A DNA stretch of 64,000 nucleotides from a virus (IMGVR_UViG_3300011008_000002); one strand, 5' to 3'. Shown: positions 1 to 31,121, counted from the stretch's first letter. The notes: a model not told the origin generated them from the sequence alone. A program made the numbers and translations.

Positions 1-1113
1 ATGAGTATTCGATATTTCAAAAGCGGATGAACTGTTGTTCTCTACGTAATCGGCTAACTGTTTAAGCCTAGTTGTTAGAGTGTTTAATTGTGCTAAATAA
101 CGAAGTTCTCCCTCAGAGAGAATTCGTTTACCCGGAGCATTGTACTTCGGGTTATTATATTTCAAACATTCAACCATATACGCCACTACTAACATCTGTG
201 AAAAGAATATTGTAGTAGGATAATGATTTTCAGATCTACGAATGATAGTATCCAAGTAATCATTCGTACTATTGAGTATATAGAATGCAGTTACAGTATC
301 TAGCTCGGATAATCCTCTGAGATATTCAATGGTCGCATTCACAACTCCCAAATTAGCTGAGTTTGAGAGAAATGATGATGGATGGAAAAACCGATTACCA
401 ATGTCATCCGGACTCTTGATGTTTATTTTCTTTAACAAATCACAATGGTTCTCGTCATCTGTTAATTGAATAAAACATCTGGTATCGTTCAAATGAGCGA
501 CATCTTTACAGAGTTTTGTGATTTCATCAATATTCGGAATCAAATCCTTTAATGTTAATGACGGGTAATTTGCACCACTGTTTTCTTTTTCAGGAGCACC
601 CAAGCGTTCAAGAATCATCTTTTCCGCTCCCATTAACTCAAGCATTTGTCCATCAAGTAGACCTTCCAACTGGTTCGACTCCAGTAGGTCATAGCGTTCC
701 ATTGTACTCAGAATGACTATCTCATCTGCACGAGATATGTCTATAACATTCTCACTCACATTAATTTCTCTGTTGTCTATAGTTTCATTTTTTGAAGAAC
801 CATAAACCCTTAATGAATTAGCAAGTACTGATAAGAACTCAGTGAATGTACTTTCATCTAATGCTGTACAAATCTCATCAACCATAGCGCAAAACTGGTT
901 TACATAATCTTCCAACTTTTCATTGGAAAAGTTAAACTTGTCAATGAATTTTGACTTTAATGTTGATGTAATTATAGGGATATACTCATCATGCTCACTA
1001 TCATCTATATTAGAAGTGAACTTATCCCAAATTGAAGATATGCGATCGGGCTCTGACAAAATGTCAGAGCTCAGTAACACGTCTCTTGTAGCTGTACTAT
1101 CGAATAACGACAT
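1..1113 (-). CDS. Hypothetical protein, partial (runs off the left edge; at least 371 aa, MSLFDSTATRDV...)
   Basis: ATG at 1113 preceded by GGAAGGAGGG. The frame is open to base 1 and overlaps the end of the upstream gene by 17 nt. Absent from the ORF track because it is truncated. Confidence 0.8.
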   Translation of the reverse strand, partial: MSLFDSTATRDVLLSSDILSEPDRISSIWDKFTSNIDDSEHDEYIPIITSTLKSKFIDKFNFSNEKLEDYVNQFCAMVDEICTALDESTFTEFLSVLANSLRVYGSSKNETIDNREINVSENVIDISRADEIVILSTMERYDLLESNQLEGLLDGQMLELMGAEKMILERLGAPEKENSGANYPSLTLKDLIPNIDEITKLCKDVAHLNDTRCFIQLTDDENHCDLLKKINIKSPDDIGNRFFHPSSFLSNSANLGVVNATIEYLRGLSELDTVTAFYILNSTNDYLDTIIRRSENHYPTTIFFSQMLVVAYMVECLKYNNPKYNAPGKRILSEGELRYLAQLNTLTTRLKQLADYVENNSSSAFEISNTH

Positions 1114-4100
1114 CTTTGAACCCTCCTTCCTCAATCTTCTCCTCTACGAGTTTATCAATCACTTTGACATCGTAATTTTTTAGTATTCCTGTTTTGATGA
1201 AAATGAAATTTTGGTTTTTCGCAAAATGATAAGGAGAAGTTAAATAGGGTTGAGTCTTGATAAGGTTACGATTACCTGCATTGATTGCAGAGGCAACAAA
1301 CTCAGAACAGAAGAACTTATCTTCTCTTTCGGAACCTCTTCCGAATATGAAGTTAGTTAATCCGAGTACATTGTATTTGTAATCTATACGTTTATCAAGC
1401 ATTGATCCAACAAAGTTCCTGATGGAATCGTACTCTTGTGCAGTAGCCATATACATATATAAAGAATATCTAACATTAGCTGCGTTCTTTTTGTATACGG
1501 ACTTATTGATATCCTCAACGACCATACCATCTCGATTAAACGATACCATATTATCAAGATTGGTATCAAACGATATACTCGAATGAGCATATGGGTCATG
1601 GGTAAATGCTTTAATAAGTTTCGCCATATTGGAACCTGTATAGGAGAGGAAGATGAATACTGGGAAATATCGCCCCTCATCTTTCATCGCTTCTATATAA
1701 GAAGCTTCCTGAACTGAACTAGTCAGCTCATATTCTCTATTACCAAGCCCAAGTTTATGAGCTGCTTCAATTGTATGAATACCTTTGCGACTTTCAATGC
1801 GCTCAATAAGTGCATATTTTCCGTTATCATTCGATTTATAAACAGCATCTATACAAGCTTGATCAACAGCAATCGGATCAGTTGATGCAAATATTCCGAT
1901 ATCCCCCATTTCAGGATCGTGGGGATGTGCATCACAATCACAATCTACACTTAGTTTATTCGCTACGTTAATATACACGATGTTCTCTGGACCCATAAAC
2001 TCCATAACGGACTTATCCGCATCTGCCATAGACTCTTGAAATTCAGAACGATCATGTGACATTAATTCATCAAACGTAGACCCAGTTCCTGCCGTATGGA
2101 TATTAGTTTTACCATGAGCCGAAGCGATGCCTATTGACATATTTTTCAATGCTCCACCGTACCCAGCCATAGCATGTCCCTTGAAATGAGATAATACAAT
2201 CATAGAATCAAATTCTTTCAAACCTTTTCCTACAAAGTTCTCTGTCAGATGAAAACCATCTTTCACGGGAATAGAAATCTCACCATATTCATCCATAAGT
2301 ATACATGGAGCTATATCTGCAAATCCATGATCTTTAATAGCTTTCCAATGATCTTCTGGAGTGTTTCGTTTCCCAGGATAAGCAGTATTACATTCTACGA
2401 TAGTACCATTAACTTCTTTGATAAGATCTTTAATTAACGATGGTTGTAAGAAATTATGCCCACCGGGTTCTCCTGTTGATATCTTAACAGCAACTTTACC
2501 AGGAAGATTAACACCAAGTACATGATACATTTGTACTAATGACTCTGGAGTGATTTCATTAGTATAATATACTTTTGATACATTCAGATTTGTAGACTCT
2601 GTAACAGATTGCTTAGAAAAATATTCTAACCATTTCTTAATCTTCTTTTCAGAATCTGCATATGCACTTGCGCGTCCTTTATGCGTCATGATCTGTAAGA
2701 ACGCAATAAATCTACCTATACGTCCTTTTGCATCAGCAGAATCTCTTATAGCACTACGTATCTGAGATAACAAAGATGAGGTGCCCTTAATATAGACTGC
2801 ATAATCTTTTAGTTCATTTGGTTCATATACCCAATAAAGTTCAACACCCTCAACAATAATTTTCTCATTCTTGTGAGATGATGCATACTTGATTGCATAA
2901 GATACGAAACCTCTAATAAGTTTTCGTTCTATTTCTTCAGTATATTCTTCCGCTGATTTAAGCTTTCGAAATTCTTTACCGGGTCCATTAAAGAACCCAC
3001 TGATTACTGGTCCGTATTCCTTCAAATTCTCATCAGAAAAATTCTGTTGAATCAATAGGTCATCTAACTGATAAAAGTCTTTTGTAATACCACCAGCCAT
3101 AGTTGTTTTACCTGAACCAGATAACCCAGTAATGAAACAAATGTTAATATCTCCATTATCGAACGCTTCTTTATTATAGTAGATATCTTTATCATTAAAA
3201 ATCTGGCTTTCCGTTATAGGAAGATGAATTCCTCTACCATTTGTCATAAAGAGCATATGTTCACTTTTATCAATTGATGTATCCTCTTTCCAACCATTCT
3301 TTTTGTAAAGATTGATTGCAACTTCATTGTTTTTGGCTACTGATAAATGAGTGGCGTTTAGTTCGTTCTCAGCAATTTTCAGTAGCTGTTTTGACAACCC
3401 GTATCCTCTATAATCGGGAGATACATAAAGAGCCTGGATCCATTTCTTAGAACCACCGAAATCAACGGCTACATAAGCAACCAATTCATTCTGTTCAAAC
3501 CAAAGATATCCGTTCGCACCGTCTACTCGAATATGCTTCAAATGAGGATAACGTACCTTATATTTGTCTATAGTAGTTTTATTGATAGCCATCTTTGTGA
3601 ACTCAGACAACTGTCTACTACCTTTCGCCTGAAAATCCTGTATCATTGTAGAAGATAATGATAACTCCATTATTACATCATTATCTGTAAGGTACATATA
3701 CTTCATTCCTGGCTTACCATCAGAAACCTTCTTTTCAACAAATCCATATTTCTTATACATACGAATTGCGATATCATTGTCTTGTCTTACCGTAAGAGCT
3801 TCTCCACCAAGTTCCTTTACTGCGTAATCTAAAACTTGATTTCCTAACCCATATCCTCGATAATCTTCGCCCACTACTAAATCATAAATCCAATAAGGAT
3901 GCTTTGATGTATCGAGTGCAACCATAGCAACAACTTTATTCTTCTTTCTATCTAACCAGACACTACCATCTTTAGACAAAGATACAAACTTTAATTCTTC
4001 AACTCCTGCTTCTACCAATTTCTTTACAACAGGAGAATCAGATGGTACCACAAGAAAATCTTTAAGATTCATACGACCTTTGGGTTTAAAACCTTCAGTC

Positions 4101-5812
4101 AAAACAGTTGCTGTCTCAGCCATCTGATTAGGTACGTTCCTGTAATCTAATTCTTCACCAGCTTCTGTTAAATCTGGTTTGTGAATTACTGGACGAACAG
4201 GGTCTTTAGCAGATTCTACAATCTGCTCCTCCCATTCATATAACCATTCATATAGTTTCGCAACTTTATCTTCACCGTATTCATATATAGTACCCTCATC
4301 ACGTTTTACACTAATAACATGAATAATACCGATTTTCATGAGTTTTACAGGTTCCTCAATCCACTTTTCATGAGTAATATGACAATCGGGAACATATCGT
4401 GGCTTTTGAGGATTCGTATTCTGCGTATCATGATAGATATGCTGACCTACAGGTTGATGTACATAATAGGTTTTTCCAGCACAGTTCTGAGATAACGCAG
4501 TAATACAATCATCCACAGTTGGACAAAAGCAAACACGTTTCGTTCGGTTATCTTCATATCCATTTTCTGTCATAAAATTTGATGGAACTGTGGGACGCAA
4601 CGTATGCCCATCTAAATTTTGTTCAGATATATGGAATAACTTCTGACCCTCAATTGTTGCTTCAAATGCAGGTTGTCCACCATTGTTCATATAATCTAAG
4701 AAACGATTTATTTCTTTTAAAGCTTTCTTAGCTTCGTATCTCATTCGACTATCTTCTTCATTATCTCTATTTATAACACCCTTTAGATAGTCGCTGACGT
4801 TATTCAGTTCATTTTCGAGCTGAATCCACTCTGCCTCATTGAGATTTTCATGAAATATCTTATTTCGATATGTATAAATCAAGTCATCGTAGTTAAGCAT
4901 TGGGTCTACCAGAGCACGATTTCTTCCGATTATATTCAATTTCTTTTTTGCATGGTCGACCCCTTCAAAGATTTGAACGTCTTTGGTAACTCCAACAGCT
5001 TCTAACGAGGGTTCTAACTTACTCTCCCATTTAGGTAAAGGACAATTATCTTCAGCTTTAAGCCTAGATAACATAGCAAAAAACTCACTGTAGTCTTTAT
5101 TACAGATTTTGATATAGTTTACCTGCCCCTTAAGAGAGTCCATAACCTGATCTTTGAGTCTCTCTTTCACCTTATCAACCGCTTGGATTTTAGGATGCTT
5201 ATTAGGATTATCTCCCCCATCCTTTAATTCAATCTCAAGGTTCAGCGAAGTCGAATATGCGTCAGGAATATAAAAGTGATCCTGACCTTCATAATTATAA
5301 TAGTAAGTATGAGGTGATGGAGCTATTATATCGGCACCATCCCAACTAAGAAATGTATCAATCATTTCAAAGAAGTCTTTACCATAACTACTATCATACA
5401 TAGCCTCATATTTCTTACCAGTCTCTTCATCGACAAATACATATTTGCCACTACTTTTCTTACCGTAAACCATCTTCTTCTGCTGTTCAGGATTGTTTAT
5501 GGAATACGGTTTTCCATGTAGTCCAATGTAATTCTTCTGAGCTAATTCATAAGCCTTCTTCTTGCAGGCTTCTTCACCGCACATCCTATTATACTTACCA
5601 GTCGCATTGTTCCATCCAGTAATTTTCTTACAATAGATACAATGACCTTCTGTCTTTCCAGTGCGGAGATAATTTTCAAATCTAGCAGCATTCCACCCAT
5701 CGGGTATAGAAGATGCATGTTCTTTCTCTATATGGTCAATCAAAGATTGCTTGTTCATAAACTTTTTCTCACAAAGTTTGCACTTTGTCGGTCTAGGCTT
5801 CTTAGTAGACAT
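1097..5812 (-). CDS. Multidomain (polyvalent) protein: Zn-finger + TnsA-N-like PD-(D/E)xK nuclease, helical domain, ART-like domain, two GNAT acetyltransferases, P-loop kinase, DUF362, permuted NlpC/P60 papain-like domain
   Basis: Motifs: CKLC..H..H; YIPDAY..EIELK; FHIS..RVCF..VPD..HEKW; DYRGYGL twice with N..AI..YKK.G; GLSGSGKTT; KISTGE, ECNTAY, HFKGH, GGALKN, DCDC, DPIAVD; PYAHSSIS..FFCSEFV. RBS GAAAGGAG and an ACA-N6-TAA site lie upstream. Confidence 0.85.
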   Translation of the reverse strand: MSTKKPRPTKCKLCEKKFMNKQSLIDHIEKEHASSIPDGWNAARFENYLRTGKTEGHCIYCKKITGWNNATGKYNRMCGEEACKKKAYELAQKNYIGLHGKPYSINNPEQQKKMVYGKKSSGKYVFVDEETGKKYEAMYDSSYGKDFFEMIDTFLSWDGADIIAPSPHTYYYNYEGQDHFYIPDAYSTSLNLEIELKDGGDNPNKHPKIQAVDKVKERLKDQVMDSLKGQVNYIKICNKDYSEFFAMLSRLKAEDNCPLPKWESKLEPSLEAVGVTKDVQIFEGVDHAKKKLNIIGRNRALVDPMLNYDDLIYTYRNKIFHENLNEAEWIQLENELNNVSDYLKGVINRDNEEDSRMRYEAKKALKEINRFLDYMNNGGQPAFEATIEGQKLFHISEQNLDGHTLRPTVPSNFMTENGYEDNRTKRVCFCPTVDDCITALSQNCAGKTYYVHQPVGQHIYHDTQNTNPQKPRYVPDCHITHEKWIEEPVKLMKIGIIHVISVKRDEGTIYEYGEDKVAKLYEWLYEWEEQIVESAKDPVRPVIHKPDLTEAGEELDYRNVPNQMAETATVLTEGFKPKGRMNLKDFLVVPSDSPVVKKLVEAGVEELKFVSLSKDGSVWLDRKKNKVVAMVALDTSKHPYWIYDLVVGEDYRGYGLGNQVLDYAVKELGGEALTVRQDNDIAIRMYKKYGFVEKKVSDGKPGMKYMYLTDNDVIMELSLSSTMIQDFQAKGSRQLSEFTKMAINKTTIDKYKVRYPHLKHIRVDGANGYLWFEQNELVAYVAVDFGGSKKWIQALYVSPDYRGYGLSKQLLKIAENELNATHLSVAKNNEVAINLYKKNGWKEDTSIDKSEHMLFMTNGRGIHLPITESQIFNDKDIYYNKEAFDNGDINICFITGLSGSGKTTMAGGITKDFYQLDDLLIQQNFSDENLKEYGPVISGFFNGPGKEFRKLKSAEEYTEEIERKLIRGFVSYAIKYASSHKNEKIIVEGVELYWVYEPNELKDYAVYIKGTSSLLSQIRSAIRDSADAKGRIGRFIAFLQIMTHKGRASAYADSEKKIKKWLEYFSKQSVTESTNLNVSKVYYTNEITPESLVQMYHVLGVNLPGKVAVKISTGEPGGHNFLQPSLIKDLIKEVNGTIVECNTAYPGKRNTPEDHWKAIKDHGFADIAPCILMDEYGEISIPVKDGFHLTENFVGKGLKEFDSMIVLSHFKGHAMAGYGGALKNMSIGIASAHGKTNIHTAGTGSTFDELMSHDRSEFQESMADADKSVMEFMGPENIVYINVANKLSVDCDCDAHPHDPEMGDIGIFASTDPIAVDQACIDAVYKSNDNGKYALIERIESRKGIHTIEAAHKLGLGNREYELTSSVQEASYIEAMKDEGRYFPVFIFLSYTGSNMAKLIKAFTHDPYAHSSISFDTNLDNMVSFNRDGMVVEDINKSVYKKNAANVRYSLYMYMATAQEYDSIRNFVGSMLDKRIDYKYNVLGLTNFIFGRGSEREDKFFCSEFVASAINAGNRNLIKTQPYLTSPYHFAKNQNFIFIKTGILKNYDVKVIDKLVEEKIEEGGFKDVVIR

Positions 5813-5870
5813 ATAAAGATATCTCCTTTCTATTTGAATTCACAAGTGGTTATATAGAAACCCTTGTGGC

Positions 5871-5965: not shown

Positions 5966-6388
5966 ATGACAGGTAGAGAAATTAACTTCAAAACGGATAA
6001 ATATAATAATCCGGTGTATCTTTCCAAAAGAGAATCAGTGGCTCAAGTAATCCAAAATGCTCTATTTATGAAACTCGGAAATAATCCGAGTCATCCAGAT
6101 AGAGGTGTTGATATAGAACAGTATCTGAATAAACCTGTCGATATGGTTGACAACATGAAAATACTGACTGATTTACGACACACCTGCGGTTCAGATATGG
6201 TTGGTAACGAAATTCAGTCTTTGAGTTTTGATGTTGTCAGATTAGAGACAGGCGATGAGGTAGCTTTGATACTTATTCGATTATCAATAGACAATACGGA
6301 AGACATGATGGCTATTGTCATTCAAAAGAGGAAAGATAACGTTGTCCGTTACAATTATAATTTCATTAACGAAGACGTACCCGTATAA
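5966..6388 (+). CDS. Baseplate wedge subunit, T4 gp25/GPW-like
   Basis: 140 aa; the pattern IQNALFMKLGNNPSHPDRGVDI matches the gp25-family I..LL.T..GE....P.FG..L signature; structural gene context. Confidence 0.65.
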   Translation: MTGREINFKTDKYNNPVYLSKRESVAQVIQNALFMKLGNNPSHPDRGVDIEQYLNKPVDMVDNMKILTDLRHTCGSDMVGNEIQSLSFDVVRLETGDEVALILIRLSIDNTEDMMAIVIQKRKDNVVRYNYNFINEDVPV

Positions 6389-6415
6389 AATCTTTTGAAA
6401 GGAGGGCGTTGGTGT

Positions 6416-8581
6416 ATGGCAAATATCCATGAACGTGGAAATTTTGACATGACTGAAATATTGCGGAAATCTCAGGAACAACAGAAAGCCAGAGAAGCCG
6501 CTAAGCAAAAAGCATCATCGACAAACAAGCAATCAGTTGCTGTACAAAAATCTACAGACATTGCATCTGCTCAACATGGTGATTATGTAGAAACCGCTGA
6601 CGGAACTGGCGGTATCTTAATTGATCACGAAGCTGAAATAGAGAAGATGCGGGAGAACGATAAGACAGGGAAAGCCTTAATGCAATTAGTGAAGTATGAC
6701 GGTTTGATATCTGAAGCCAACGCATACAGACCGGAGTATGGAGAAAATGCACCAGAAGGATATGACCCTGGGGTAGAATGGATAAAACAAAATCCATGGG
6801 ATCCAAAGACAAAAGAACTGAAGAAGATAAAAGAAGGATTTGCAGGACTTTCTTATGGTATTGAGGGATTGGTACCAATAGACTCAGAAGAAGCCCATAG
6901 AGTAGCTGAGGCTATGGAAAAAGTTCGTACCGGAGAAATTGTACTCCCTACACCTGAAGAATATGAAATGCAAAGACAAGCTGCTAAAGAACGTAAGAGG
7001 CAGCGAAGAGAAAAGTATTCTCACAACAATAATAAATCTCCTAAAAAACAGGAGACTGTAGTAAACCCAAAAGAAAGAAACTCTATACCTATTGAGGAAG
7101 AAAATCCAGAGCCTCAAATGGCAGAAATGCCAGAGAATGCATACATAACGAAAGGAGTAATGGAACAGATGGATGAAATGAACAATAGTACGCCTAAGCG
7201 TACAGTCAACGTATCTGTAAAACAGCCCGAACAACAGGTTGTGGCACCGCAGAACATCAACAACGCTGTGGATAATGATGTTATCGCACAGCAGATTATG
7301 AACGATCCAAGTTTGGATGTCGAACTTCCTATGGAAGATGATCAGGAAGTAGGTGGAATAGAGATTGAACAAAACGCACAACAACCAAAGCAACCAATCG
7401 ACCTTTTCCAGGTTCAGGAGAATCTTGATGAAGCCAGTAACGATGAAGTTTCTGAAGATGGTAATCAGAATAATACTTCTGATACTGCTTCTGAAAGCAA
7501 CGTCATGGTGATTAATGTACCGAAGGACGAGGTGGATAATTTCGTTAAGCAGATGCCTGTTGAAACGTTCAACAAAATGACAAGTGCAGACGTTATTCAG
7601 ATTAACGAGGTGGAGCTTAAGGATGTTCCTACAGCAACTCGTCGTATCGACAGTATCGCCGAATACAGGGCTATTCGGAACCGTCGTAAGGATAAGAACA
7701 AGCCGACTCAGCTCAGGGAAAGAGCTCTGCCGAACTCCGGTTATGTTGCAACAGTAAAACCGGCTACATCTATGGAGATGTCGACTATGTTCAAGTCTCC
7801 TACTCTCAACAGCGATATTGAATATCAGAAATTATACGATTTCTGCTATACCCATATGGTGGATTCCTCTATTGGAAGGATGTCCTTTGCAGAATTCGTA
7901 AATAACACCGATCCTGCTGAGTTGGAAGATCTCGCATATGACATCTATGCTATGTCTGAAACATCCGAGAGGAAAATCAGCATTCATTGCGGTGAAGGTG
8001 ATGGCGGTTGTGATCAATTCTTTGAGATCACTGTCGATGCTAATACTATTCCAGATATCTCTGGTTTGTCTGACGAGTATAAGAACCGTGTGAAGGAAAT
8101 CATTGAAGTCAGGAACGACCTGAACTCTGCAAAGGAGCTTCAGAAGAATTCTCCGATAATGAAGTATAAGGTTGTCCGGTTTGGTGATTCGTACTTCTAT
8201 GTACGTAAAACGACCGGTCCGATGATGACCAGTAGGGATGATAGGCTCGTTGAGATTGGTGAAAAGCATGGACAGTTTGTTGCACTTTTGATCCTCTTCG
8301 TCGATAAAGTGGTGGTTACTTATCAGGAGAGGGAAGATGTGGAACCTCGAACTGTTGAGTTCACCGATGTTGAAATGATATGTGAAGAACTCAAATCTTT
8401 GGATGACGATCAGCTTGATACGCTTAAGGATATTATTGGTAACAACATCGAAGACTTCCCGAAGATGACATATTCTCTTAAGGGCGATTTCGTTTGCCCT
8501 AATTGTGGAAAAAGGAGAACTCGCATTCCTTGTAGCGTGACTGACCTGATTTTTCAAAAAGTCCAGCGGATGTTCGGTTAA
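6416..8581 (+). CDS. Baseplate hub or tail assembly chaperone-like protein (T4 gp26-like C-terminal region) with a long low-complexity N-terminus
   Basis: ATG 6416 after GAAAGGAGG. The C-terminal region has DLAYDIYAMS...HCG..GGC and CPNCG zinc-binding motifs. Follows the gp25-like gene. Confidence 0.5.
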   Translation: MANIHERGNFDMTEILRKSQEQQKAREAAKQKASSTNKQSVAVQKSTDIASAQHGDYVETADGTGGILIDHEAEIEKMRENDKTGKALMQLVKYDGLISEANAYRPEYGENAPEGYDPGVEWIKQNPWDPKTKELKKIKEGFAGLSYGIEGLVPIDSEEAHRVAEAMEKVRTGEIVLPTPEEYEMQRQAAKERKRQRREKYSHNNNKSPKKQETVVNPKERNSIPIEEENPEPQMAEMPENAYITKGVMEQMDEMNNSTPKRTVNVSVKQPEQQVVAPQNINNAVDNDVIAQQIMNDPSLDVELPMEDDQEVGGIEIEQNAQQPKQPIDLFQVQENLDEASNDEVSEDGNQNNTSDTASESNVMVINVPKDEVDNFVKQMPVETFNKMTSADVIQINEVELKDVPTATRRIDSIAEYRAIRNRRKDKNKPTQLRERALPNSGYVATVKPATSMEMSTMFKSPTLNSDIEYQKLYDFCYTHMVDSSIGRMSFAEFVNNTDPAELEDLAYDIYAMSETSERKISIHCGEGDGGCDQFFEITVDANTIPDISGLSDEYKNRVKEIIEVRNDLNSAKELQKNSPIMKYKVVRFGDSYFYVRKTTGPMMTSRDDRLVEIGEKHGQFVALLILFVDKVVVTYQEREDVEPRTVEFTDVEMICEELKSLDDDQLDTLKDIIGNNIEDFPKMTYSLKGDFVCPNCGKRRTRIPCSVTDLIFQKVQRMFG

Positions 8582-9235: not shown

Positions 9236-10852
9236 ATGAAGATATGGATTACACCACAAGATAAATTTCAGCAACTAAATGGTCTACAGGAAGTCACAAA
9301 CCCAATATCTTTTGAAAAGGGAATGATTCCGACTTCCGATGGATTATTTTCTACTGAGATTTTCGGTATGAACACTTACGACAGACGACATACATGGGCA
9401 TACATAGATCTCAAAAAACATTATCTTACACCAAAAGCATATATATCTTTGAAGGCATTAAATCGAAATTTTGAGTCCGTTATATTTGGCACGAAAAGGT
9501 TTAAGATTGAAAATGGAGTTTTGGAAGCAGATGAGAACGGTGGAACAGGTATTGAATGGCTTTATAAGAATTGGGAAAAGTTAAACTTCCCTAAGAATAG
9601 TAGTAACAAGAGAAGTGCCCATATTGATATGTTAAATAACTACAAAAAAGACGTTTTGTTTATTACAAAGTTTGGAGTTTGTCCGGCTTTTTATCGTGAT
9701 TTCAATACAGCAAATAACGATGGAGGGAAACCAAAAGTTCCTGAAATCAACGATAAATATGCTGCGATTTTAAGAAATGTCAGTATGATAGAATCAGCCA
9801 CGAACTTCGACTTTATGATAAACTCAATAGTCGGTAAAACCCAAGTTCTATTGAACGAAATATATGACCTAATGAAAGAGAAGATTAACGGAAAGAATGG
9901 TTACCTCAGACGTTCTATTCTCGGAAAATCTATTGATTATTGTGGTCGTATAGTCATTACTGCAACACCGTATGATAACGAATCCGTATATGACCAACAC
10001 ATCAATTTCTACTATACTGGAGTCCCGTTGTCTCACTGTTGCGCTCAGCTTACTCCGTTCATTGTATGGTGGCTAAACGGATATTTCCGTACTCGTGTAA
10101 TCGCCAGCAAAGACCAGTTTCCTGTAATGAACGATAAGTTAGAAAAGGTTTATGTACATCTTGACAATCCTGAAACAGTATTCAATGACGATTACATTGA
10201 TAAGAATTTGACTAGATGGATTAATAACCCTTCTAGCAGATTTGATTATATCGAAATTCCTATTAGGGAAGATGACAGGAAAAAGTTTGGTATCAAAGGT
10301 CCTAGGTATTTGATGTTAAATGGGTATTCATATACATCAACATCAATGGCTAGAACAGCATACCAGACAAACGGTACAAATAATGGGGTTTTACTTGAAA
10401 GACCAATGACCTGGACTGATTTGTTATATATGGCGGCATTTGATGTATCAGAAGATAAACACGTTGAAATCACTAGATACCCTATGCTTGATTATTTGGG
10501 GACATTTTTCTCAAGGATTTATGTTATTTCAACAAGGCAAACCGTTCCAATGATTATCAATGACAAATTATATGAAACATATCCTTATATCCAAACTAAC
10601 ATTCCTAAGGGTAGAGTTGAAGCTCAATTCATTGATTCATATAAAATATGCCCGCTATATCTTCCTGGACTTGATGGAGACCATGATGGCGATCAGATAA
10701 CATCTAAAATGGTCTTTTCAAAAGAGGCAAACGAAGAGATTGAAAGAATTATGACCAGTAAATCGAATATACTTACGATTGATGGTGGGAGTATTCGTTC
10801 AATCGGTAATGAGGGTATTCAAACCCTTTATACACTAACGAAATTTCATTGA
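9236..10852 (+). CDS. Phage multisubunit RNA polymerase beta' subunit, N-terminal/catalytic part
   Basis: DGLFSTEIFG, GKNGYLRRSILGKSIDY.GRIVI, RYPML and catalytic GLDGDHDGDQ (DxDGD). Ends soon after the active site, as split beta' genes of jumbo phages do. Confidence 0.92.
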   Translation: MKIWITPQDKFQQLNGLQEVTNPISFEKGMIPTSDGLFSTEIFGMNTYDRRHTWAYIDLKKHYLTPKAYISLKALNRNFESVIFGTKRFKIENGVLEADENGGTGIEWLYKNWEKLNFPKNSSNKRSAHIDMLNNYKKDVLFITKFGVCPAFYRDFNTANNDGGKPKVPEINDKYAAILRNVSMIESATNFDFMINSIVGKTQVLLNEIYDLMKEKINGKNGYLRRSILGKSIDYCGRIVITATPYDNESVYDQHINFYYTGVPLSHCCAQLTPFIVWWLNGYFRTRVIASKDQFPVMNDKLEKVYVHLDNPETVFNDDYIDKNLTRWINNPSSRFDYIEIPIREDDRKKFGIKGPRYLMLNGYSYTSTSMARTAYQTNGTNNGVLLERPMTWTDLLYMAAFDVSEDKHVEITRYPMLDYLGTFFSRIYVISTRQTVPMIINDKLYETYPYIQTNIPKGRVEAQFIDSYKICPLYLPGLDGDHDGDQITSKMVFSKEANEEIERIMTSKSNILTIDGGSIRSIGNEGIQTLYTLTKFH

Positions 10853-13966: not shown

Positions 13967-14227
13967 ATGATAACCCCTAGGTCGTTCAGTGTCGATGGTA
14001 GAAAACATATATCCATTGATGAGGGATTTTCCCTGGACTTCGACGATGAATTCCGATCCGTCACGATAACCGATGACACACGTGATGAAAAGAGGGCTGT
14101 GTTGTTTGATACGTGGGGAGAGGTCAATAAGTTTCGTTGTAAATTAAAAGGAGAAACGCTAGAGATTGCATTTTACTCTAACATGATCACCGTACCAATG
14201 ATAAGTGTTGATCGTGGTATAGGGTGA
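13967..14227 (+). CDS. Hypothetical protein (86 aa), putative early gene
   Basis: RBS AAAGGAGG; TATATTAA site at 13920; terminator downstream. Confidence 0.75.
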   Translation: MITPRSFSVDGRKHISIDEGFSLDFDDEFRSVTITDDTRDEKRAVLFDTWGEVNKFRCKLKGETLEIAFYSNMITVPMISVDRGIG

Positions 14228-16666: not shown

Positions 16667-17965
16667 TCAGAACGAATACTTAGCTGCCATATCAAGGATG
16701 CTCTGCACAGCAGACTCAGCCGTAGCTTCCTCATCATCATCGCCACCCTTAGCAGCCTTCTTTCCGTCGTCTCCGCCCTTGCCGCCGTCGCAATCTTCAC
16801 AATCCTCTCCTTCGAGAACCAGGCTGGACTCAAGAGCTGCGAAAGCATCCACATCGAATACACCCATGGACTCCTGCTTCGGATTGTAATTGTAAAATCC
16901 CTTCAATGCACCAAGCCAACTGCTGGACATTTCCTTATAGATCTCAATACGGACATTGCAAGCATCCTTTACTGCATTGAGCAGTGCAGAAATCTTACCG
17001 GAAATGTTAGAGGCATGAGAAACCTTGTTGCTGGCTGCGGTACGAGCCGCGTCATCGGCATCACTAGCCGTCTCTTCTTTGAAATTGTTAAGCTTCTTAA
17101 CGACATCATTGACTTTAGTTTCAAAGCTGTTTAAATCCTTCTGAAGCTTATCAATCGTATCCTTAGACTTCTCAAGGAAATCAACCATATCTCCTACGTT
17201 GTTTCCAGAGAAATCAACAATCTCCCTCTTATCGGTATCACCGTTACGATACTTAAGAGTAAGTTCCTCCTTAAGCTGCGTCGTATCGGAAACATCAACC
17301 GCCGAAAGCTTTCTAAGGACATCTTCAAGATACTCATTGGCACTCTTAGCCTTTTCGCCGTCAAACGTATCGCTCAACTTAGACTTCATCATTTCATCGA
17401 ATTCAGCCTGAGACTTAGCATCATTGGCAATACTGAAACCATCACCAATAAGCGCATCCATCTTCTTCGTGAGCGCATCCTTGACACTCTGGACAGCAGA
17501 GTCACCTTCAGATTTCTTATAGACATATCCTTTATAGGAATATCCCTTGACCTTCGAAGCCTTATCTTTTACGGTCTTACCAAACTTCTTGACAAAATCT
17601 CCCGCATTGGAGAACATTGCCTTGAACCAGTCGATGACCTTCTTATAGAAAGCCTGAACCTTAGCAAGGAACTTCTGAAAAGCCGCCTTGATCTTTGCAA
17701 TACCATTTCCAATGATACCCTCAGATACCGCCACCATATCGAAGGACTCTCCTACACGCTGAGCCCGAATTGCCTGTGCCGCACCTATAACATCCGCCGC
17801 CATGTAAGCCTTCTCAGCTTCCATGATATCCGAAAACAGGTCTGCACACGCCGAAGTCATATAACTCGATTCTGCAACAGCAGAGGTACTGAAATCATAG
17901 CTGGGCATTCCATCATTACGAGATGCATTAGCACCTTCCATGATAACACTCGCAAGCATACTCAT
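16667..17965 (-). CDS. Virion inner-head protein (paralog family)
   Basis: MSMLASVIME|G start; VSE|G then an amphipathic helix; acidic C-terminal tail with further E-[SAG] sites; RBS AAAGGAGGT. Confidence 0.65.
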   Translation of the reverse strand: MSMLASVIMEGANASRNDGMPSYDFSTSAVAESSYMTSACADLFSDIMEAEKAYMAADVIGAAQAIRAQRVGESFDMVAVSEGIIGNGIAKIKAAFQKFLAKVQAFYKKVIDWFKAMFSNAGDFVKKFGKTVKDKASKVKGYSYKGYVYKKSEGDSAVQSVKDALTKKMDALIGDGFSIANDAKSQAEFDEMMKSKLSDTFDGEKAKSANEYLEDVLRKLSAVDVSDTTQLKEELTLKYRNGDTDKREIVDFSGNNVGDMVDFLEKSKDTIDKLQKDLNSFETKVNDVVKKLNNFKEETASDADDAARTAASNKVSHASNISGKISALLNAVKDACNVRIEIYKEMSSSWLGALKGFYNYNPKQESMGVFDVDAFAALESSLVLEGEDCEDCDGGKGGDDGKKAAKGGDDDEEATAESAVQSILDMAAKYSF

Positions 17966-17967
17966 GA

Positions 17968-19080
17968 TTACTTACCTCCTTTATTCTTTCTTGCATACGC
18001 AAACGCACCAGTAAGTGCCTTCTTGTACGCAGCATTCCGTTCAACAACAGCAGTCTTAACCGCGTTGTTCTTCTTATTCTCAAGAGACTGAATCTTGGTA
18101 ACAATTGCCGACAACGCATGATAGGTATTGGTGACATTACTAGCCCCAGCAGAGTTGTACTTATAGGTGACCGCACCATTTTTTCTTTCAATCATACCGT
18201 CGGAATTCTTTTCCAACTTGTTGAAACTGTTCTCAGCAGATTTGATCCCATCAAGAATCTTACCGTAGTTCCGATCAGCGTTCTTAATCGCGCTGTCAAT
18301 ATTTGAAATGACATCGTTGGAACTCTTAAGCGCCGTAATCGCATCATCAAAGAAACTAGATACTTCAACATCATCAGTATCGCTCTGACCCTTCGCGCCA
18401 GAACGCATATTTGACCAGAGTATATCATCATACTCGTCTTCGTTAGCATCCTTTCCAAGAATGGTCATTACAGCCTTCTTGTATTCTTTTTCAAACTCGT
18501 CTTTGATAAATCCTTCATCAAGTTCAGATACCTTGCTCACCTTAGTGTCATAATTGTTATTAAGAGCAGCGTCTATGGAACCCTCAGCCACCTTATTCAC
18601 ATTATCAAAAAGACTACTCAACTTTCCATCGTTCAAATACTTATCGAAAGAATACTTGAACATGGAAATCTTATAGCCCTTCAGATCGTTCCTAATAGCC
18701 TTCAGATCATCGGCATAAGTTTCGACCCACTTCCTGTCATTACCGAAGATACCAGTGAGATACCTCTTGATATTGTGAAGAAAATCCTTAACCTTGTCCC
18801 TCAAGTTAATGAAGAACTGCTTAATCTTTTCCCAAGCGCCCTTGATAGACGCTTCCATAACGGACGCCTGCGAAGACTCCTCAACGCATGTCGCACCCTC
18901 TAACGCAGCCTGGATTTCGCAAGAATTCGGTACATAGAAAATCGACTCATAGATATCCCTAAGTGCTTCCGCCGATTCCATCGCGATCATACCTGCGCCA
19001 TTCTCATGATCATAGTGGTGGTTGAGCTTTGCCGTCCCGTAGGACGCTCCCTCCATAATCATAGTCGCAAGATTAGACAT
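17968..19080 (-). CDS. Virion inner-head protein (paralog family)
   Basis: MSNLATMIME|G start; VME|A then IKGAWEKIKQFF; RBS AAAGGAGGT. Confidence 0.65.
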   Translation of the reverse strand: MSNLATMIMEGASYGTAKLNHHYDHENGAGMIAMESAEALRDIYESIFYVPNSCEIQAALEGATCVEESSQASVMEASIKGAWEKIKQFFINLRDKVKDFLHNIKRYLTGIFGNDRKWVETYADDLKAIRNDLKGYKISMFKYSFDKYLNDGKLSSLFDNVNKVAEGSIDAALNNNYDTKVSKVSELDEGFIKDEFEKEYKKAVMTILGKDANEDEYDDILWSNMRSGAKGQSDTDDVEVSSFFDDAITALKSSNDVISNIDSAIKNADRNYGKILDGIKSAENSFNKLEKNSDGMIERKNGAVTYKYNSAGASNVTNTYHALSAIVTKIQSLENKKNNAVKTAVVERNAAYKKALTGAFAYARKNKGGK

Positions 19081-19143: not shown

Positions 19144-20157
19144 CTAAACAATCGTAAAGCCTGCGCCTTCCGTCTTGTTCGAGTACATTGTCTTTTCGAT
19201 ATTTTGCAGAGAGAAACCTTTGTTGTCGTCAGCAACTTGTTTCTTCGCGAGGGCACCGATATCCTCATCATTGATTTTGAGCTTGTCGGCTGTACGCCGA
19301 AGTTTAAGAATTATTTTTTCCTGTTTCTTCAGTATCTCCTGCTTTTCTTTAGCAGACTTGCTTGATGCCTGTACACCAAGCTTATTGAGTTCGAGGAAAT
19401 ACGCCTGCATTTCCAAATAGTCAGACAGTTTCACCTTTGTACGGTAAAAGAAATAGATAAGTTGCCTTGTCACAGGGATAACGGATACCAATGCTGTAAT
19501 AACAACCCCAGTGATAACGATTCCAGTTCCAGTGAAATTTTTCCTCTGGGCATCCAGCAAATATGTACTCATTGTTTCGAAGTGACCGACCTTAACCTCG
19601 TCATTGAACCGCCTTAGGTTATCGAGAGATATTCTCCCTCTGCCTTTATCGTTCCTCGACCTACTATCATATTGTGACTGCTCAGGTCCCAAAAGATAGT
19701 TCATATAGTCGGCAATTATCATTGACGTTGCATCAATGATTGCCATTACGATTGTGTTATAAAACAGAATCAAATAATCCTGCTTCATTTGAAATGCGCT
19801 CTCAAATGTAGGGGTATATTTTTTCATGTTCACAATAGCTTGCCTAACAATATCAACCTCAGTGGTTGGAATATTGTTCTTAACCATGAGCTCTGATAAA
19901 ATATCTAAGCTCTCCTCTGTAGATTTCATATACTTGCACTTGGTAATGCTACCTTTAGAGTCAGGGATATCACCGAAGTCGCAATCCTTCCTCTCTAATA
20001 TGGTCTTATAAAGACCCTGAACCAAAGTGCCGTTAATCTGATGTACGTCATCCTTACTCATAGTTTGGATATATCTTTTATCGTCTGAGGAAGAAGCTTC
20101 CATGACGATAGGTGATACCTTGACTACATCAGGATACCATCCAAAATTCGAAGCCAT
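19144..20157 (-). CDS. Probable virion structural protein
   Basis: Late operon; VME|A site near the N-terminus; hydrophobic segment GIVITGVVITALVSVIP. Confidence 0.55.
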   Translation of the reverse strand: MASNFGWYPDVVKVSPIVMEASSSDDKRYIQTMSKDDVHQINGTLVQGLYKTILERKDCDFGDIPDSKGSITKCKYMKSTEESLDILSELMVKNNIPTTEVDIVRQAIVNMKKYTPTFESAFQMKQDYLILFYNTIVMAIIDATSMIIADYMNYLLGPEQSQYDSRSRNDKGRGRISLDNLRRFNDEVKVGHFETMSTYLLDAQRKNFTGTGIVITGVVITALVSVIPVTRQLIYFFYRTKVKLSDYLEMQAYFLELNKLGVQASSKSAKEKQEILKKQEKIILKLRRTADKLKINDEDIGALAKKQVADDNKGFSLQNIEKTMYSNKTEGAGFTIV

Positions 20158-20158
20158 A

Positions 20159-21556
20159 TCACATACTCCTTCCTAACATCTTCATCATGTTCTTGAACGC
20201 CTTGTCGTCATTTTGTCCTTCCCTACGAAGTGTATCATAGGTATACGTGTCCGTTGTATCAATACCATCAAAACGGAAAGTTGCTCTCTGAGTTACCGGA
20301 TTTACAATGACATATCCGAGCAGGAAATAGATATTCATCAAACGATTTATAACCATCTCGTTGCTCATATCGTATCCATAGTTCTCAAGGATATACTCGA
20401 TTGTAGATTGAGAAATGACCAGAGTTGCATTAGGCATAATGGACTTCTTTGTGAGTTGAAGCTTTGACTTAGAAGCCATCGCTCTGCGCTTTAATGCAGG
20501 TCTCCACCCTGTAACATCATTTCCACTGTCCTTCGCATCCATCTTGATTGCATCAAGTGCAAACATAAAATCCTTAAAAAACTTAATCTCTCCCGTTGTC
20601 CAACGAATGAAATTGAATATAACATCTTCGTTTCTCATCCCAGATACAACCATACGGGCAATTTCAGAAGCAGGTATCGGATGGAGAGTTGCTTTCACGC
20701 CCATGACAAAATCAATAGGAGTAAGCTCCTCTTTGGTGAATTTATCTACCGGATATACCCTTACATGAAGAAGTGTAGGAACCAAATCATTGGCTTTCTT
20801 ACAGTCATTGTCGGTAAGAGTCCTCCATTGACCACCCCTTCCACCGCCACCAGATGAAGGTATTTTGACATTTACATTGTTATGAACATCTACGTTACGA
20901 TTAGTAACATTAGCTTTATCACCAAAGCTTACATTACCACCACTTGTACTCAATTCAACGTTGTTTGTGTTATACGTATTGAACGTATCACCATCAGAAC
21001 GACGAGCTTCCATAGTAGGAAGTCTCCTCTCAAAACGTGCATTCAAGCTATCCGGAGCAGCCATTTCCCTAACGGTATAGTTAAATCTGGCATTGATATC
21101 CTGCGGAATGGATGCCTTTACTCCCTCATAGATAACAGAAGCCAACCTAAAAGCCTCACTCTCTAAGGTGGTATATTCCATATTGTTATTATCCGCAGAT
21201 TCTTTTACAAAATCCAACAAGCTGAGACGATACTTCTCTTTGTCACCAGATACTCTCATATTCTGATGGAATTGTTTCATATAAGCAGAGGCAGAGGGGG
21301 TTACTCCCTTCTCAACCTCAAGATATGGGTCCATCGTAAGCACAGTAAGCAAGAAGGAAGCAAATTTCTTCTCCGCTGCTCGTGCGATAAGACTACTGTC
21401 ATCCAAAGACATACTATCGTCTACAAGGACAGGGAAATTTGCTGTACCTTCCATAGCGGCTGACGAGATAGACCGTTTGGAACTGTATATGCCAGCTTCA
21501 GCAAACTGAGCTTTAATATCTTGCATAGTGCTGAGGGCATCTCTAATTTCACTCAC
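20159..21556 (-). CDS. Probable virion structural protein
   Basis: GTG start after AAAGGAGGT; ACA-N6-TAA at 21583-21594; internal VKE|S, TLE|S, IYE|G, TME|A sites. Confidence 0.6.
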   Translation of the reverse strand: MSEIRDALSTMQDIKAQFAEAGIYSSKRSISSAAMEGTANFPVLVDDSMSLDDSSLIARAAEKKFASFLLTVLTMDPYLEVEKGVTPSASAYMKQFHQNMRVSGDKEKYRLSLLDFVKESADNNNMEYTTLESEAFRLASVIYEGVKASIPQDINARFNYTVREMAAPDSLNARFERRLPTMEARRSDGDTFNTYNTNNVELSTSGGNVSFGDKANVTNRNVDVHNNVNVKIPSSGGGGRGGQWRTLTDNDCKKANDLVPTLLHVRVYPVDKFTKEELTPIDFVMGVKATLHPIPASEIARMVVSGMRNEDVIFNFIRWTTGEIKFFKDFMFALDAIKMDAKDSGNDVTGWRPALKRRAMASKSKLQLTKKSIMPNATLVISQSTIEYILENYGYDMSNEMVINRLMNIYFLLGYVIVNPVTQRATFRFDGIDTTDTYTYDTLRREGQNDDKAFKNMMKMLGRSM

Positions 21557-26910: not shown

Positions 26911-28746
26911 ATGGCTAAGGAAAGTGTTTTCTCTACACCAAGAACTGAAAACCTGACAGCTAGTCAGATGTTAGAGAACTTTATCAATAAGAGAAACAAT
27001 CAGCGAAATAACTTAAAGGCTATCGCAGAGGCGCAAAAAGCATCTGAAATCGACCCTGATTTCACAGCTACATTGGAAGCTGCTTCAGTTGAAGCTGATA
27101 AGAAGGCTAGAGCTGAAACCGCCATGGAAAATGCGGAATATAAACAGGGTGCAAAGAATATCGCCCTGAATAAATTCGGGCTTCGTTCTCAGATGATACA
27201 GGAGGCTACAGATTACATCACCGGAAAGGTCTTAGGAGAACTTATTTACGAGTGCTACTGGCTTGACGATGAACTTAAGGAAACCACTGCCGATCAAATT
27301 ACTGATAACATCGAGAATGTGCTTGGATACGTTGAAGAGAATTTCCCCTCAGCAAAAGTATCTGAACGTAACATGAACCCGATGACAAAAAATATCTTCA
27401 ATGCAATAAAAGAAACTGCGGATGCAGCAGTAAACCGCATTGTGAAAGAATGTGACGAGGATTGTACAGTTTATCCTGAATTCAATCTCACTGATGCGGA
27501 AGAAGATGAACTTGATAACAAGCTTGTCGATCTTGGGAAAGATGACATCATTGACCTTGTTAAAGAAAAGGTTGCTGCCGTTGTTCAGGATGAAAAGAGG
27601 CGTGGTGAGGAAAAATCCAACCTCTTTAAGGAAATTGATGAACTCTCTTCCGAAGGAGAAGAAGGAGAAACTGAGGAAGGTGAAACCGAGGATGGAGAAG
27701 AAACTGATGAATCACTTTTAGCATCCATCAAAAACACTACGCCAACGACGGAGGCAGTTGAAGTTCCTGTAACCAAGTATAGGTACAACGTAAATTCTTC
27801 TTCGTATACTGCAAACGAAAGGTACATGGCAAGCGTGATAGAGTCTGACCAACACGTACAGCTCTTCAATGACCCTACATGGGGTGAGTTCAAGGCATAT
27901 GTATCCTTACAGTGCAAACAGATAAGAGATGTACTTGATAGAGCCGGTGTATCAAAGAATGCAGCGGATTATAAAAACTCTATTTGCCTAATTGAAGATT
28001 TGGAAAAGAGACTGGTTGGTGTTCCTGAGACAGTTACATCGGAAGTAAAGCAGTATATCATGGCTATGGTGAACATCATATACGCCTCTGTATCTACCGA
28101 TGACGTTGTAATATGTCGATTTGGAAATCCTATGGGTGCTCCTGATATACAGTCATCTAGTCCTTCAATTGACTATACTACAATCAGTTGGATGGACTTG
28201 TTTGCCAATATAAAGACCAACCTTGCTTCTATCAAGAACTACTGCAATGATAAAGCTAATGCAGAGGTCATTGACGATGACACCCTGAATGATTCTGATT
28301 GTCCTGTAACGGGAAAGGATTCTCTTGCTCAAAAGGTAGCACAGGCTCAGACACGTATCCTTACGAAAAATTTGGGTGGTAGTCTGTTTGAAGCTATGAT
28401 GATAGGAGCAATTAAAACTATCTCGTCGGCAACTATGGAATCCAGTTCCAAATATAACGATGAAGATGTTGACAATGCAGCTTTGGTAGAATCTCTCCTG
28501 AACTATACTATACTTGAGACACTTGATACCATTGGTATGTATAAGTTCAGGGCTAACGATATCAATGCAATGATGCGGAACTTTATGTATCCCACCCTCG
28601 AAAATCTTGGTGATAGTAACAATAGTATCCTTGGTCATGGGAAGGATAAGAAAGGTCTTAAGAAAATCCGTATCAACACCAAAAAGTTGAAACAGAAGAA
28701 AAACATCATGGCTAGTTCCATATCTACATTCAAGAAAGACAAATAA
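26911..28746 (+). CDS. Probable virion head protein
   Basis: ACA-N6-TAA at 26872; TLE|A, IQE|A, TTE|A, VIE|S, TME|S sites; acidic linker. Confidence 0.55.
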   Translation: MAKESVFSTPRTENLTASQMLENFINKRNNQRNNLKAIAEAQKASEIDPDFTATLEAASVEADKKARAETAMENAEYKQGAKNIALNKFGLRSQMIQEATDYITGKVLGELIYECYWLDDELKETTADQITDNIENVLGYVEENFPSAKVSERNMNPMTKNIFNAIKETADAAVNRIVKECDEDCTVYPEFNLTDAEEDELDNKLVDLGKDDIIDLVKEKVAAVVQDEKRRGEEKSNLFKEIDELSSEGEEGETEEGETEDGEETDESLLASIKNTTPTTEAVEVPVTKYRYNVNSSSYTANERYMASVIESDQHVQLFNDPTWGEFKAYVSLQCKQIRDVLDRAGVSKNAADYKNSICLIEDLEKRLVGVPETVTSEVKQYIMAMVNIIYASVSTDDVVICRFGNPMGAPDIQSSSPSIDYTTISWMDLFANIKTNLASIKNYCNDKANAEVIDDDTLNDSDCPVTGKDSLAQKVAQAQTRILTKNLGGSLFEAMMIGAIKTISSATMESSSKYNDEDVDNAALVESLLNYTILETLDTIGMYKFRANDINAMMRNFMYPTLENLGDSNNSILGHGKDKKGLKKIRINTKKLKQKKNIMASSISTFKKDK

Positions 28747-30430: not shown

Positions 30431-31105
30431 TTAAATAATATAATCTAAACCCTCTACTACTTTAGGGTTTTCCTTGAATGATTTGCGACCTTCCACCGTA
30501 CGTTTATTGTATTTACAATCGTAAACAGTCATGAACTTTACACTTACCTCAATCCTAGGTAATACTGAGTAAAACTTCTCAACTTCCCCTTTGAAAACGA
30601 CGCTGTCATTACTCACTAATACTTTCTGTACCATATCGCTATAGGTTTTTCCAAGATTATCCCAGTCAGGAGCATTGATATTATGGATTACACCGAGCTC
30701 AGCAGCAACCTTTTCTTCAACACTCATATTCGCTGGCGTTTTTATATATGCTTTGGTACTAAAAATACATGGAGTTGAAATAACAGCATTCATTTCAGAA
30801 TGTTGATTTACAAAGTTCTCAAATATTTGAGCGTTCATTTTTGCACCACTTACATAGAATACAAACGTATTACGTGATAATTTTGGTCGCGGTGTTGGTT
30901 TTGGAGTCATATAAAAAATATAATTGACTTCATTCCATTGTACTTTTGTTAGCTCTTGTATTTTATTTAATAAATCTATCAGATGTTCTTCTTTGAAACC
31001 GACTTCTTGGTATAACCAAGCAAGACGTTCCTTGTAATCTTTTGGTATATGTCCATAGCTTGCATGATAGTCCAATGCAGCCTGTATACCATTCGATTTT
31101 GACAT
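30431..31105 (-). CDS. rusA: RusA-like Holliday junction resolvase
   Basis: PKPTPRPK, PDWDNLGKTYSDM, NDSVV and EKFYS..PRIEV motifs; ATG 31105 after AGAGGTG. Confidence 0.8.
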   Translation of the reverse strand: MSKSNGIQAALDYHASYGHIPKDYKERLAWLYQEVGFKEEHLIDLLNKIQELTKVQWNEVNYIFYMTPKPTPRPKLSRNTFVFYVSGAKMNAQIFENFVNQHSEMNAVISTPCIFSTKAYIKTPANMSVEEKVAAELGVIHNINAPDWDNLGKTYSDMVQKVLVSNDSVVFKGEVEKFYSVLPRIEVSVKFMTVYDCKYNKRTVEGRKSFKENPKVVEGLDYII

Positions 31106-31121
31106 ATAATCACCTCTCTTA

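Follow-up and report, generated by a model that had tools for sequence, protein, structure and literature searches.

A modular polyprotein of an uncultured AR9-like jumbo phage carries head-protease-type motifs at the joints between its domains

Polyvalent proteins of phages and conjugative elements, described by Iyer, Burroughs, Anand, de Souza and Aravind in 2017, carry 2-15 unrelated, mostly enzymatic domains on a single polypeptide, and an embedded zincin metallopeptidase, which is frequent but not obligatory, has been proposed as the domain that processes them (PMC5512222). Head-maturation proteases of the gp21 family, for their part, cleave after Glu in x-x-E motifs (AXE in SPN3US and SXE in phiKZ; PMC10052503, PMC5694885). 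The T4 gp21 protease processes the capsid protein, the injected internal proteins and the ADP-ribosyltransferase (ART) Alt, and the proteases of SPN3US and phiKZ often use several sites per propeptide and undergo auto-cleavage at their C-terminus (PMC10052503, PMC5694885). Here we describe a gene (P0001) at positions 1097-5812 on the minus strand of a 64,000-nucleotide stretch of the virus record IMGVR_UViG_3300011008_000002 (the whole of this stretch is henceforth referred to as the window), the product of which is a polyprotein of 1571 residues whose modules are joined by motifs of this kind.

Like the polyvalent proteins, this polyprotein places ART, GNAT, kinase-like, nuclease and peptidase domains in one phage-encoded chain beside candidate virion genes, and the prediction made for polyvalent proteins, that they enter the host with the DNA and are processed into units, is also the prediction made here. 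Unlike them, it has no zincin (neither Pfam nor PHROGs detected a zincin or other metallopeptidase family in it); it ends instead in a papain-like cysteine peptidase and has a gp21-type head-protease motif at every joint. Head proteases, linkers, phiKZ and AR9 go unmentioned in the description of polyvalent proteins (PMC5512222), nor does it contain a layout of fixed ends and swappable middle led by a nuclease of the AR9 g233 type. The parallel with the internal proteins IPI-III and Alt of T4 is that our genome encodes a Peptidase_S77 protease and that the injected T4 cargo, which includes an ART, is cut after Glu in hydrophobic-x-E motifs within the prohead (PMC5694885); T4 cargo proteins, however, are single-domain and lose a leader of ~10 residues, whereas here there is no leader and there are ~12 internal sites between ~8 putative enzymes. 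The likeness to phiKZ and SPN3US (gp175/gp245) lies in their being jumbo phages with a virion RNA polymerase (RNAP), many packaged proteins, x-x-E cuts and multi-site propeptides (PMC10052503, PMC5694885). The P3 residue here is V/I/L/S/T and not Ala as in the AXE motif of SPN3US. Polyproteins of RNA viruses are also single translation products with P1-Glu/small-P1' sites at domain boundaries, which are cut by 3C-like proteases at Q/E|G/S/A; the resemblance is functional only, lineage, protease fold and location of processing being unrelated. A jumbo-phage survey from the Aravind laboratory treats polyvalent proteins only in passing, and in the literature that we searched, including a 2026 jumbo-phage review and the SPN3US proteomics, we found no description of a polyprotein with a head-protease site at every joint. 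Polyvalent proteins as such are already known, and it is the junction-by-junction head-protease sites that appear to be new.

The gene is present in a single copy in the 229,126-bp IMG/VR record, which is estimated to be 97% complete, and its open reading frame (ORF) of 1571 codons and a stop runs exactly as the initial annotation had placed it. A Shine-Dalgarno (SD) sequence, AAGGAG (5823-5828, minus strand), precedes the ATG at 5812 by 10 nt. A database call of the same protein (P0002, 1553 residues) begins at M19, which affects 5758-5812 on the minus strand; since this start would remove the invariant zinc-finger residues C11 and C14, we regard M1, with its SD sequence, as the real start. 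The chain contains eight modules with six different folds, all of which are given below with their positions on the minus strand of the window and with a bar after the Glu of each site. Module 1 (residues 1-271; 5000-5812), henceforth referred to as the N block, comprises a C2H2 zinc finger, a second Cys cluster and a PD-(D/E)XK core, and ends in ...PKWESKLEPSLE271|A. It matches phrog_15137 'endonuclease' (E 4e-44) and is orthologous to the stand-alone proteins AR9 g233 and phiR1-37 g237. In 45 sequences C11, C14, H27, H32, D184 and K197 are invariant and the signature P183-D184 ... E195-x-K197 is invariant or nearly so. The AlphaFold model of this block (predicted local distance difference test score, pLDDT, 76.5) has weak Foldseek matches to Bax1, Cas4 (SSO0001) and RecE (E 0.01-0.06 for these three) and to PA endonucleases, and with the catalytic motif in place we classify it as a predicted PD-(D/E)XK nuclease. 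A spacer of 12 residues (272-283; 4964-4999; pLDDT <50), bounded by SLE271|A and IFE283|G, leads to module 2 (residues 284-384; 4661-4963), a conserved block of ~100 residues with no assigned function, for which a search of Atlas features gave no usable match, and which ends in AFE384|A followed by TIE388|G. In homologues this block (query residues 281-397) is found at varying distance from the N block.

Module 3 (residues 385-533; 4214-4660; ending in IVE533|S) appears to have an ART fold, with moderate support. Its AlphaFold model (pLDDT 85.3) gave VIA-align Z scores of 7.0 for the ART toxin TreX, 6.3 for Scabin, 5.5 for Arr and 5.3 for Tpt1, where values below 8 are moderate evidence; ~25 ARTs were among the first 40 matches, with pertussis, LT, pierisin, DarT and ParT as further neighbours, and Foldseek matched Arr with a probability of 0.98. 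Residues R431, E425 and E487 are invariant. A profile search of the PDB with the module 3 sequence found no match, and Foldseek against the PDB returned nothing at E <= 0.001 for either module 1 or module 3. A disordered linker or mini-module (residues 534-573; 4094-4213; pLDDT ~40), which contains LTE550|A, MAE566|T and LTE573|G, precedes two GNAT acetyltransferases, namely module 4 (residues 574-716; 3665-4093; Pfam Acetyltransf_1 and related families), ending in IME716|L, and module 5 (residues 717-868; 3209-3664; Acetyltransf_7 and Acetyltransf_10), ending in ITE868|S. Module 6 (residues 869-1072; 2597-3208; ending in VTE1072|S) looks P-loop kinase-like, with the Walker A motif GLSGSGKTT; its AAA_18 match of 21 bits is under the curated cut-off, its PDB matches to shikimate and APS kinases are weak, homologous modules in relatives match AAA_33 and APS kinase, and the assignment as a kinase is a weak one. 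Module 7 (residues 1073-1369; 1706-2596) is a DUF362 domain (PF04015, E 1.7e-45) that ends in VQE1369|A and is followed by a short spacer (residues 1370-1374; 1691-1705), ASYIE1374|A, with the second of two tandem sites that open module 8 (residues 1375-1571; 1100-1690), henceforth referred to as the C block. This last module matches PDB 3kw0 'cysteine peptidase' (E 1.4e-5 over 155 positions) and phrog_1128, and both H1410 and C1502 are invariant in 39 sequences, with His ahead of Cys in the permuted order of YiiX/C92-type enzymes; we classify it as a predicted permuted papain-like peptidase of the C92/YiiX type. The domain calls that had been made from the sequence at the outset were thereby largely borne out for the nuclease, the ART fold, the two GNATs, DUF362 and the papain-like peptidase, the P-loop kinase call being weak, and of the 'about eight unrelated domains' proposed there are indeed eight, two of which, the GNATs, are related to each other.

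All 11 x-x-E sites initially listed for the domain boundaries are present at the residues and in the tripeptides given for them. As a list of junctions it needed revision, since E573 is not conserved (4/49 contexts) and E566 (MAE|T), which is the conserved junction Glu before the first GNAT, had been overlooked; E716 is conserved as a junction (56/76 contexts) even though its P1' residue here is Leu. Homology breakpoints against 120 homologues cluster at residues 272, 281, 375-392, 530-575, 702-721, 862-867, 1067-1081 and 1360-1374, and the AlphaFold pLDDT collapses at 265-283, 380-388 and 536-555. A logo made from 375 distinct junction sites reads S/P/T at P4, V/I/L at P3, T/N/E at P2, Glu at P1 and, at P1', Ser in preference to Ala and then Asn and Gly.

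The motif is far denser at the module junctions than inside the modules, as had been anticipated, and the excess is specific to Glu. In the polyprotein itself, 10 of the 16 matches to [AVILST]-x-E-[SAG] fall in the 13.8% of its length that lies outside domain cores (binomial p 9e-6), where Glu overall is only slightly enriched. Among 58 non-redundant homologues the breakpoint zones make up 6.8% of the length and hold 291 of the 939 matches to [LIVMFYASTP]-x-E-[SAG], a 4.5-fold enrichment, whereas the same pattern with another P1 residue gave 0.82x for Asp, 1.02x for Gln and 0.73x for Lys. The motif was present in 53% of 464 zones compared to 15% of random windows, the observed value was never reached in 200 randomisations, and the Asp control was at its random level; as the ends of BLAST alignments are fuzzy, at least this proportion of the junctions carries the motif. 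We used this zone test with residue controls because a raw profile of Glu frequency around the ends of high-scoring segment pairs was too blurred. In a replicate with 138 previously unused cluster representatives the enrichment was 3.06-fold overall and 3.07-fold beyond residue 300, against 0.86 and 0.61, respectively, for the Asp control.

A search of 5.8 billion proteins retrieved 288 relatives of 864-2750 residues, mostly on contigs of 220-280 kb, and these show the fixed end domains and variable internal cargo that had been predicted for the orthologues. Two blocks are fixed: residues 1-272, at 58-81% identity, and residues 1365/1369-1571, at 49-79%, the C block being mostly kept. Between them the relatives differ in length, content and order, and the breaks in homology coincide exactly with E271|A and E1369|A. 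In 32 non-redundant orthologues (969-2002 residues) the N block has 48-81% identity, the middle measures 498-1531 residues and a median of 53% of it can be aligned; because the two loci that we fetched (L003 and L004) share the flanking genes, we regard them as positional orthologues. The N block ends in ...PKWESKLE-x-x-[TS]-E|[SAG], and in ~45 proteins homology ceases at this Glu. The C block starts directly after x-x-E|[SA][TS]YIEA regardless of the unrelated cargo upstream, and the kinase-like and DUF362 modules have the same kind of start in many different contexts. Other cargo found in relatives includes a papain-fold Gln-deamidase toxin domain, WDGH, a HAD hydrolase, a SNF2 helicase and a metallophosphoesterase. 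With a profile built from the N block we retrieved 769 clusters (50% identity) at E <= 1e-30; in the best 150 of these the block is N-terminal in proteins of 260-2002 residues in total, and in 127 of the 138 new representatives a motif lies within residues 246-300. The isolates covered by our searches have the nuclease only in stand-alone form; these N-block proteins stop short of the junction tail, and C92 and ART profiles found nothing beside the stand-alone N-block genes of AR9, DC4 and phiR1-37. Two short relatives from other metagenomic phages, P0237 and P0243 (523 and 632 residues), consist of the N-block nuclease, a V-x-E|A/S site and then the C92 peptidase directly, which suggests that the two fixed ends may be an ancestral fused core that later received cargo. 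A second clade (P0047-P0057 and P0070-P0078; 250-280 kb contigs) is without the N block and has a near-invariant longer linker, ...ESYIEE|S, between its modules, which the ASYIE1374|A spacer of the polyprotein resembles.

A protease of the appropriate family is encoded elsewhere in the same genome. A Peptidase_S77 (T4 gp21-type) gene lies at G000:C1:13920-14822, outside the window (PF03420, 41.6 bits, above the cut-off; phrog_207 'head maturation protease'), and its product has TFE214|S and VCE255|S just past the catalytic domain, where relatives auto-cleave (PMC5694885). A tyrosine recombinase gene (G000:C1:12395-13402, also outside the window) is directly upstream of it. The major capsid protein (phrog_20655; detected by PHROGs but not by a Pfam Gp23, PF07068, search) has 4 of its 7 motif matches in the first 95 residues, and its E26, E60 and E84 are at least 80% conserved in 97 homologues, down to 43% identity, as the intervening sequence drifts. 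The database call for the capsid protein (P0122, 619 residues; G000:C1:22261-24192, outside the window) begins 24 codons too late; alignment with the homologues extends back to the upstream ATG, and the stretch thus gained contains a conserved ...ME|S site. At least 4 motif matches in the first 100 residues were found in only 5 of the 187 ORFs of the genome, namely the capsid protein, one ORF of 189 residues and three ORFs of the window that are located beside genes for virion proteins. Two of these three, on the minus strand at 16667-17965 and 17968-19080 (432 and 370 residues, respectively), have 5 and 7 matches in the first 100 residues, with IME|G at residue 10; they have no PHROG match and adjoin genes for PHROG 'virion structural protein' at 19144-21556. 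Judged by these N-termini, both are probable protease substrates with N-terminal propeptides, and the pair resembles paralogous proteins of the head or of ejection whose propeptides are cut at several sites and whose capsid-targeting leader is similar to that of T4. The third, a 611-residue ORF at 26911-28746 on the plus strand, has 5 matches in the first 100 residues and the top overall motif density in the genome. The earlier statement that the pattern is dense in the head proteins is thus correct in the form of N-terminal clusters in the capsid protein and in these three ORFs, and does not extend beyond 5 of 187 ORFs overall. These results support, without proving, the notion that the protease of this clade recognises hydrophobic-x-E|small and that the joints of the polyprotein are written in the same code.

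We propose that the gene encodes a polyvalent effector polyprotein that is packaged, cut by the head-maturation protease into separate enzymes and ejected with the DNA, an account to which we give somewhat better than an even chance. Under this proposal an ancestral stand-alone virion-associated nuclease of the AR9 g233 / phiR1-37 g237 type would have been extended by a swappable array of enzymes (ART fold, two GNATs, P-loop kinase-like and DUF362), with the fixed C-terminal papain-like peptidase closing the chain and each module bounded by the selected motif (V/I/L at P3, any residue and often Thr at P2, Glu at P1 and Ser/Ala/Gly at P1'). The precursor would be incorporated into the prohead, where the T4 gp21-type Peptidase_S77 maturation protease would cleave after every junction Glu, with double sites freeing short spacer peptides, and ~8 separate proteins would then be ejected with the DNA and modify host targets. 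Our analysis shows the modular anatomy, the selection on the motif and the cassette-like behaviour, the last of which the initial annotation had also proposed, together with the presence of the protease gene and the shared motif class in the capsid leader; packaging, cleavage at the joints, the identity of the protease as the prohead enzyme and ejection are what we infer. The link to the virion is a GenBank note, the record of phiR1-37 g237 reading 'phage structural protein', which is the sole virion evidence. In the proteome paper of Staphylococcus phage DC4 the N-block homologue appears as an annotation and not among the detected virion proteins, and the RNA-seq paper on phiR1-37 does not mention g237.

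Several observations weigh against this proposal. The first motif of the polyprotein occurs only at residue 271, so that it has no N-terminal targeting leader or propeptide of the T4 or phiKZ type, and all known cuts in SPN3US except the self-cleavage of the protease remove N-terminal propeptides, none of them dissecting a polyprotein (PMC10052503). The sites of the capsid protein prefer Met/Leu at P2 whereas the junctions of the polyprotein prefer Thr, i.e. the motif class is shared and the sites are not identical. The 'structural' note on phiR1-37 g237 leaves head or tail unspecified, and, because the neighbour of the polyprotein gene is a baseplate-wedge homologue and no head gene, the N block could be a tail or baseplate protein beyond the reach of the prohead protease. 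The enrichment figures given above come from homologous sequences, which are not statistically independent samples, and some of the metagenomic proteins may be truncated. Finally, the C block is a second fixed element with an invariant catalytic His and Cys, which also makes it the basis of the main rival explanation.

That explanation is self-processing, in which the C-terminal permuted papain-like Cys peptidase would itself cut x-x-E|S/A/G, in cis or in trans and either within the capsid or once injected, in parallel with the embedded metallopeptidases of Iyer et al. and with the viral 3C-like proteases that act at Q/E|G/S/A. Two tandem sites, VQE|ASYIE|A, are located right at the peptidase's own N-terminus, minimal forms of N block plus C92 exist (P0237 and P0243), and the concept has a published precedent (PMC5512222). 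However, 9 of the 58 non-redundant homologues have no C92 domain and are still 3.2-4.7x enriched for the motif at their breakpoints, and about half of the 138 N-block representatives are also without this domain, with the junction motif kept where tested. The genome has no second C92 copy, and the same motif class is found in the capsid leader and at other head-gene N-termini, which are without a C92 domain. In addition, the amidase and acyl-transfer chemistry of the YiiX/NlpC-P60-type fold is better known than Glu-specific endoproteolysis by it. On balance we consider self-processing unlikely.

We give similarly low probability to the explanation that the protein is never cut and works as an intact multi-enzyme polyvalent protein, packaged or not, with the motif selected for docking or as folding boundaries or hitch-hiking with the ends of the modules. 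Some polyvalent proteins, such as plasmid TraC1 and Sog, are indeed transferred full-length (PMC5512222), and shuffled modules could carry the motif along at their ends. Against this, the pattern specifically demands Glu at P1, where Asp is not tolerated, a small residue at P1' and a hydrophobic one at P3; P3 and P2 are supplied by unrelated upstream cargo and yet fit the pattern; the tandem sites, 5-23 disordered residues apart, look like excisable spacers; and the motif class is that of the protease family encoded in the same genome. A DNA-level recombination site for module shuffling without any cleavage of the protein, although modules clearly are shuffled in order and content among phages, is highly improbable and was rejected, because conservation is at the level of amino acids and the junctions lack a shared nucleotide word (the 12 junctions of the gene have no common nucleotide motif except the Glu codon, and this varies between GAA and GAG as the P1' codon does, e.g. 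TCT and AGC for Ser).

If the polyprotein is packaged and cut as proposed, then tailed phages would deliver a customisable ready-made set of enzymes at infection by means of a polyprotein strategy. A broader version of the proposal is that AR9-like gut jumbo phages have plug-and-play capsid cargo, in which any enzyme placed between nuclease and peptidase and flanked by V/I/L-x-E|S would be packaged, excised by the head protease and injected, with hundreds of lineages exchanging cassettes; this we hold to be possible, at rather less than an even chance. Were it true, the exchange of cassettes would be akin to polymorphic toxin loci swapping their tips, and a polyprotein strategy of a DNA virus would serve to deliver a pre-made enzyme kit. 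The junction motif could be used as a sequence-only predictor of mature boundaries and of protease substrates in uncultured jumbo phages, and the large family (769 N-block clusters) is a collection of candidate effectors for host takeover or against defence, among them DUF362 and several unannotated modules. The layout of fixed ends and swappable middle also suggests how, in laboratory phage-bacterium systems, phage heads might be loaded with foreign proteins.

A megablast of the polyprotein gene against phage records gave no match and hence no close relative among isolates. The window contains two multisubunit RNAP beta-type genes (phrog_3148, phrog_2986), at 48982-53688 (minus strand, 1568 residues) and 9236-10852 (plus strand), which are typical of AR9/phiKZ-like phages, as well as several PHROG 'virion structural protein' genes. 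A stand-alone counterpart to the first 250 residues of the polyprotein, named 'endonuclease fused to N-terminal Zn finger domain', occurs in the Bacillus phages AR9 and PBS1, in jumbo phages of Staphylococcus and Listeria and in Yersinia phage phiR1-37. The divergent neighbour of the polyprotein gene (5966-6388, plus strand, 140 residues) is homologous to AR9 g232 by tblastn to the AR9 locus (E 1e-5), a gene that bears the annotation 'base plate wedge subunit', and the gene after it, at 6395-8581, matches AR9 g231 (E 3e-9). Synteny with AR9 g231-g232-g233 is kept, and the orthologous loci L003 and L004 share the genes on either side. The 8-mer with the strongest upstream enrichment genome-wide, AAAGGAGG, corresponds to the SD consensus and suggests a Firmicutes-type host. 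Overall, the RNAP genes, the AR9-type N block, the AR9 synteny and the SD consensus lead us to regard the source as an uncultured, RNAP-encoding jumbo phage of the AR9/PBS1-like kind.

Elsewhere in the window, an ORF of 4057 residues (32856-45029, minus strand) combines, near its C-terminus, a Peptidase_C39-like domain (residues 3209-3352) with a phage tail lysozyme domain (residues 3679-3868) and is probably a giant protein of the tail or for penetration of the cell wall; in x-x-E motif density it equals the genome average. A RusA-like Holliday junction resolvase gene is found at 30431-31135 (minus strand).

The polyprotein gene had also been credited with a late promoter motif. The published late promoter consensus of AR9 is AACA-N6-T-A/G (PMC7598289), and upstream of the gene there is no exact match to it, the nearest being CACA-N6-TA ~70 nt before the start codon. 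The commonest upstream word genome-wide is CTATATTAA, often with TTTTATT before it, which looks like an early-type promoter, and upstream of the polyprotein gene there is only an approximation of this common word, CTATATAA, at -44. The recurrent word TTTTATT-N-(C)TATATTAAAA, a candidate early (virion RNAP) promoter, occurs 40-70 nt before many small genes, e.g. upstream of those at 13967-14227 and 47218-47808.

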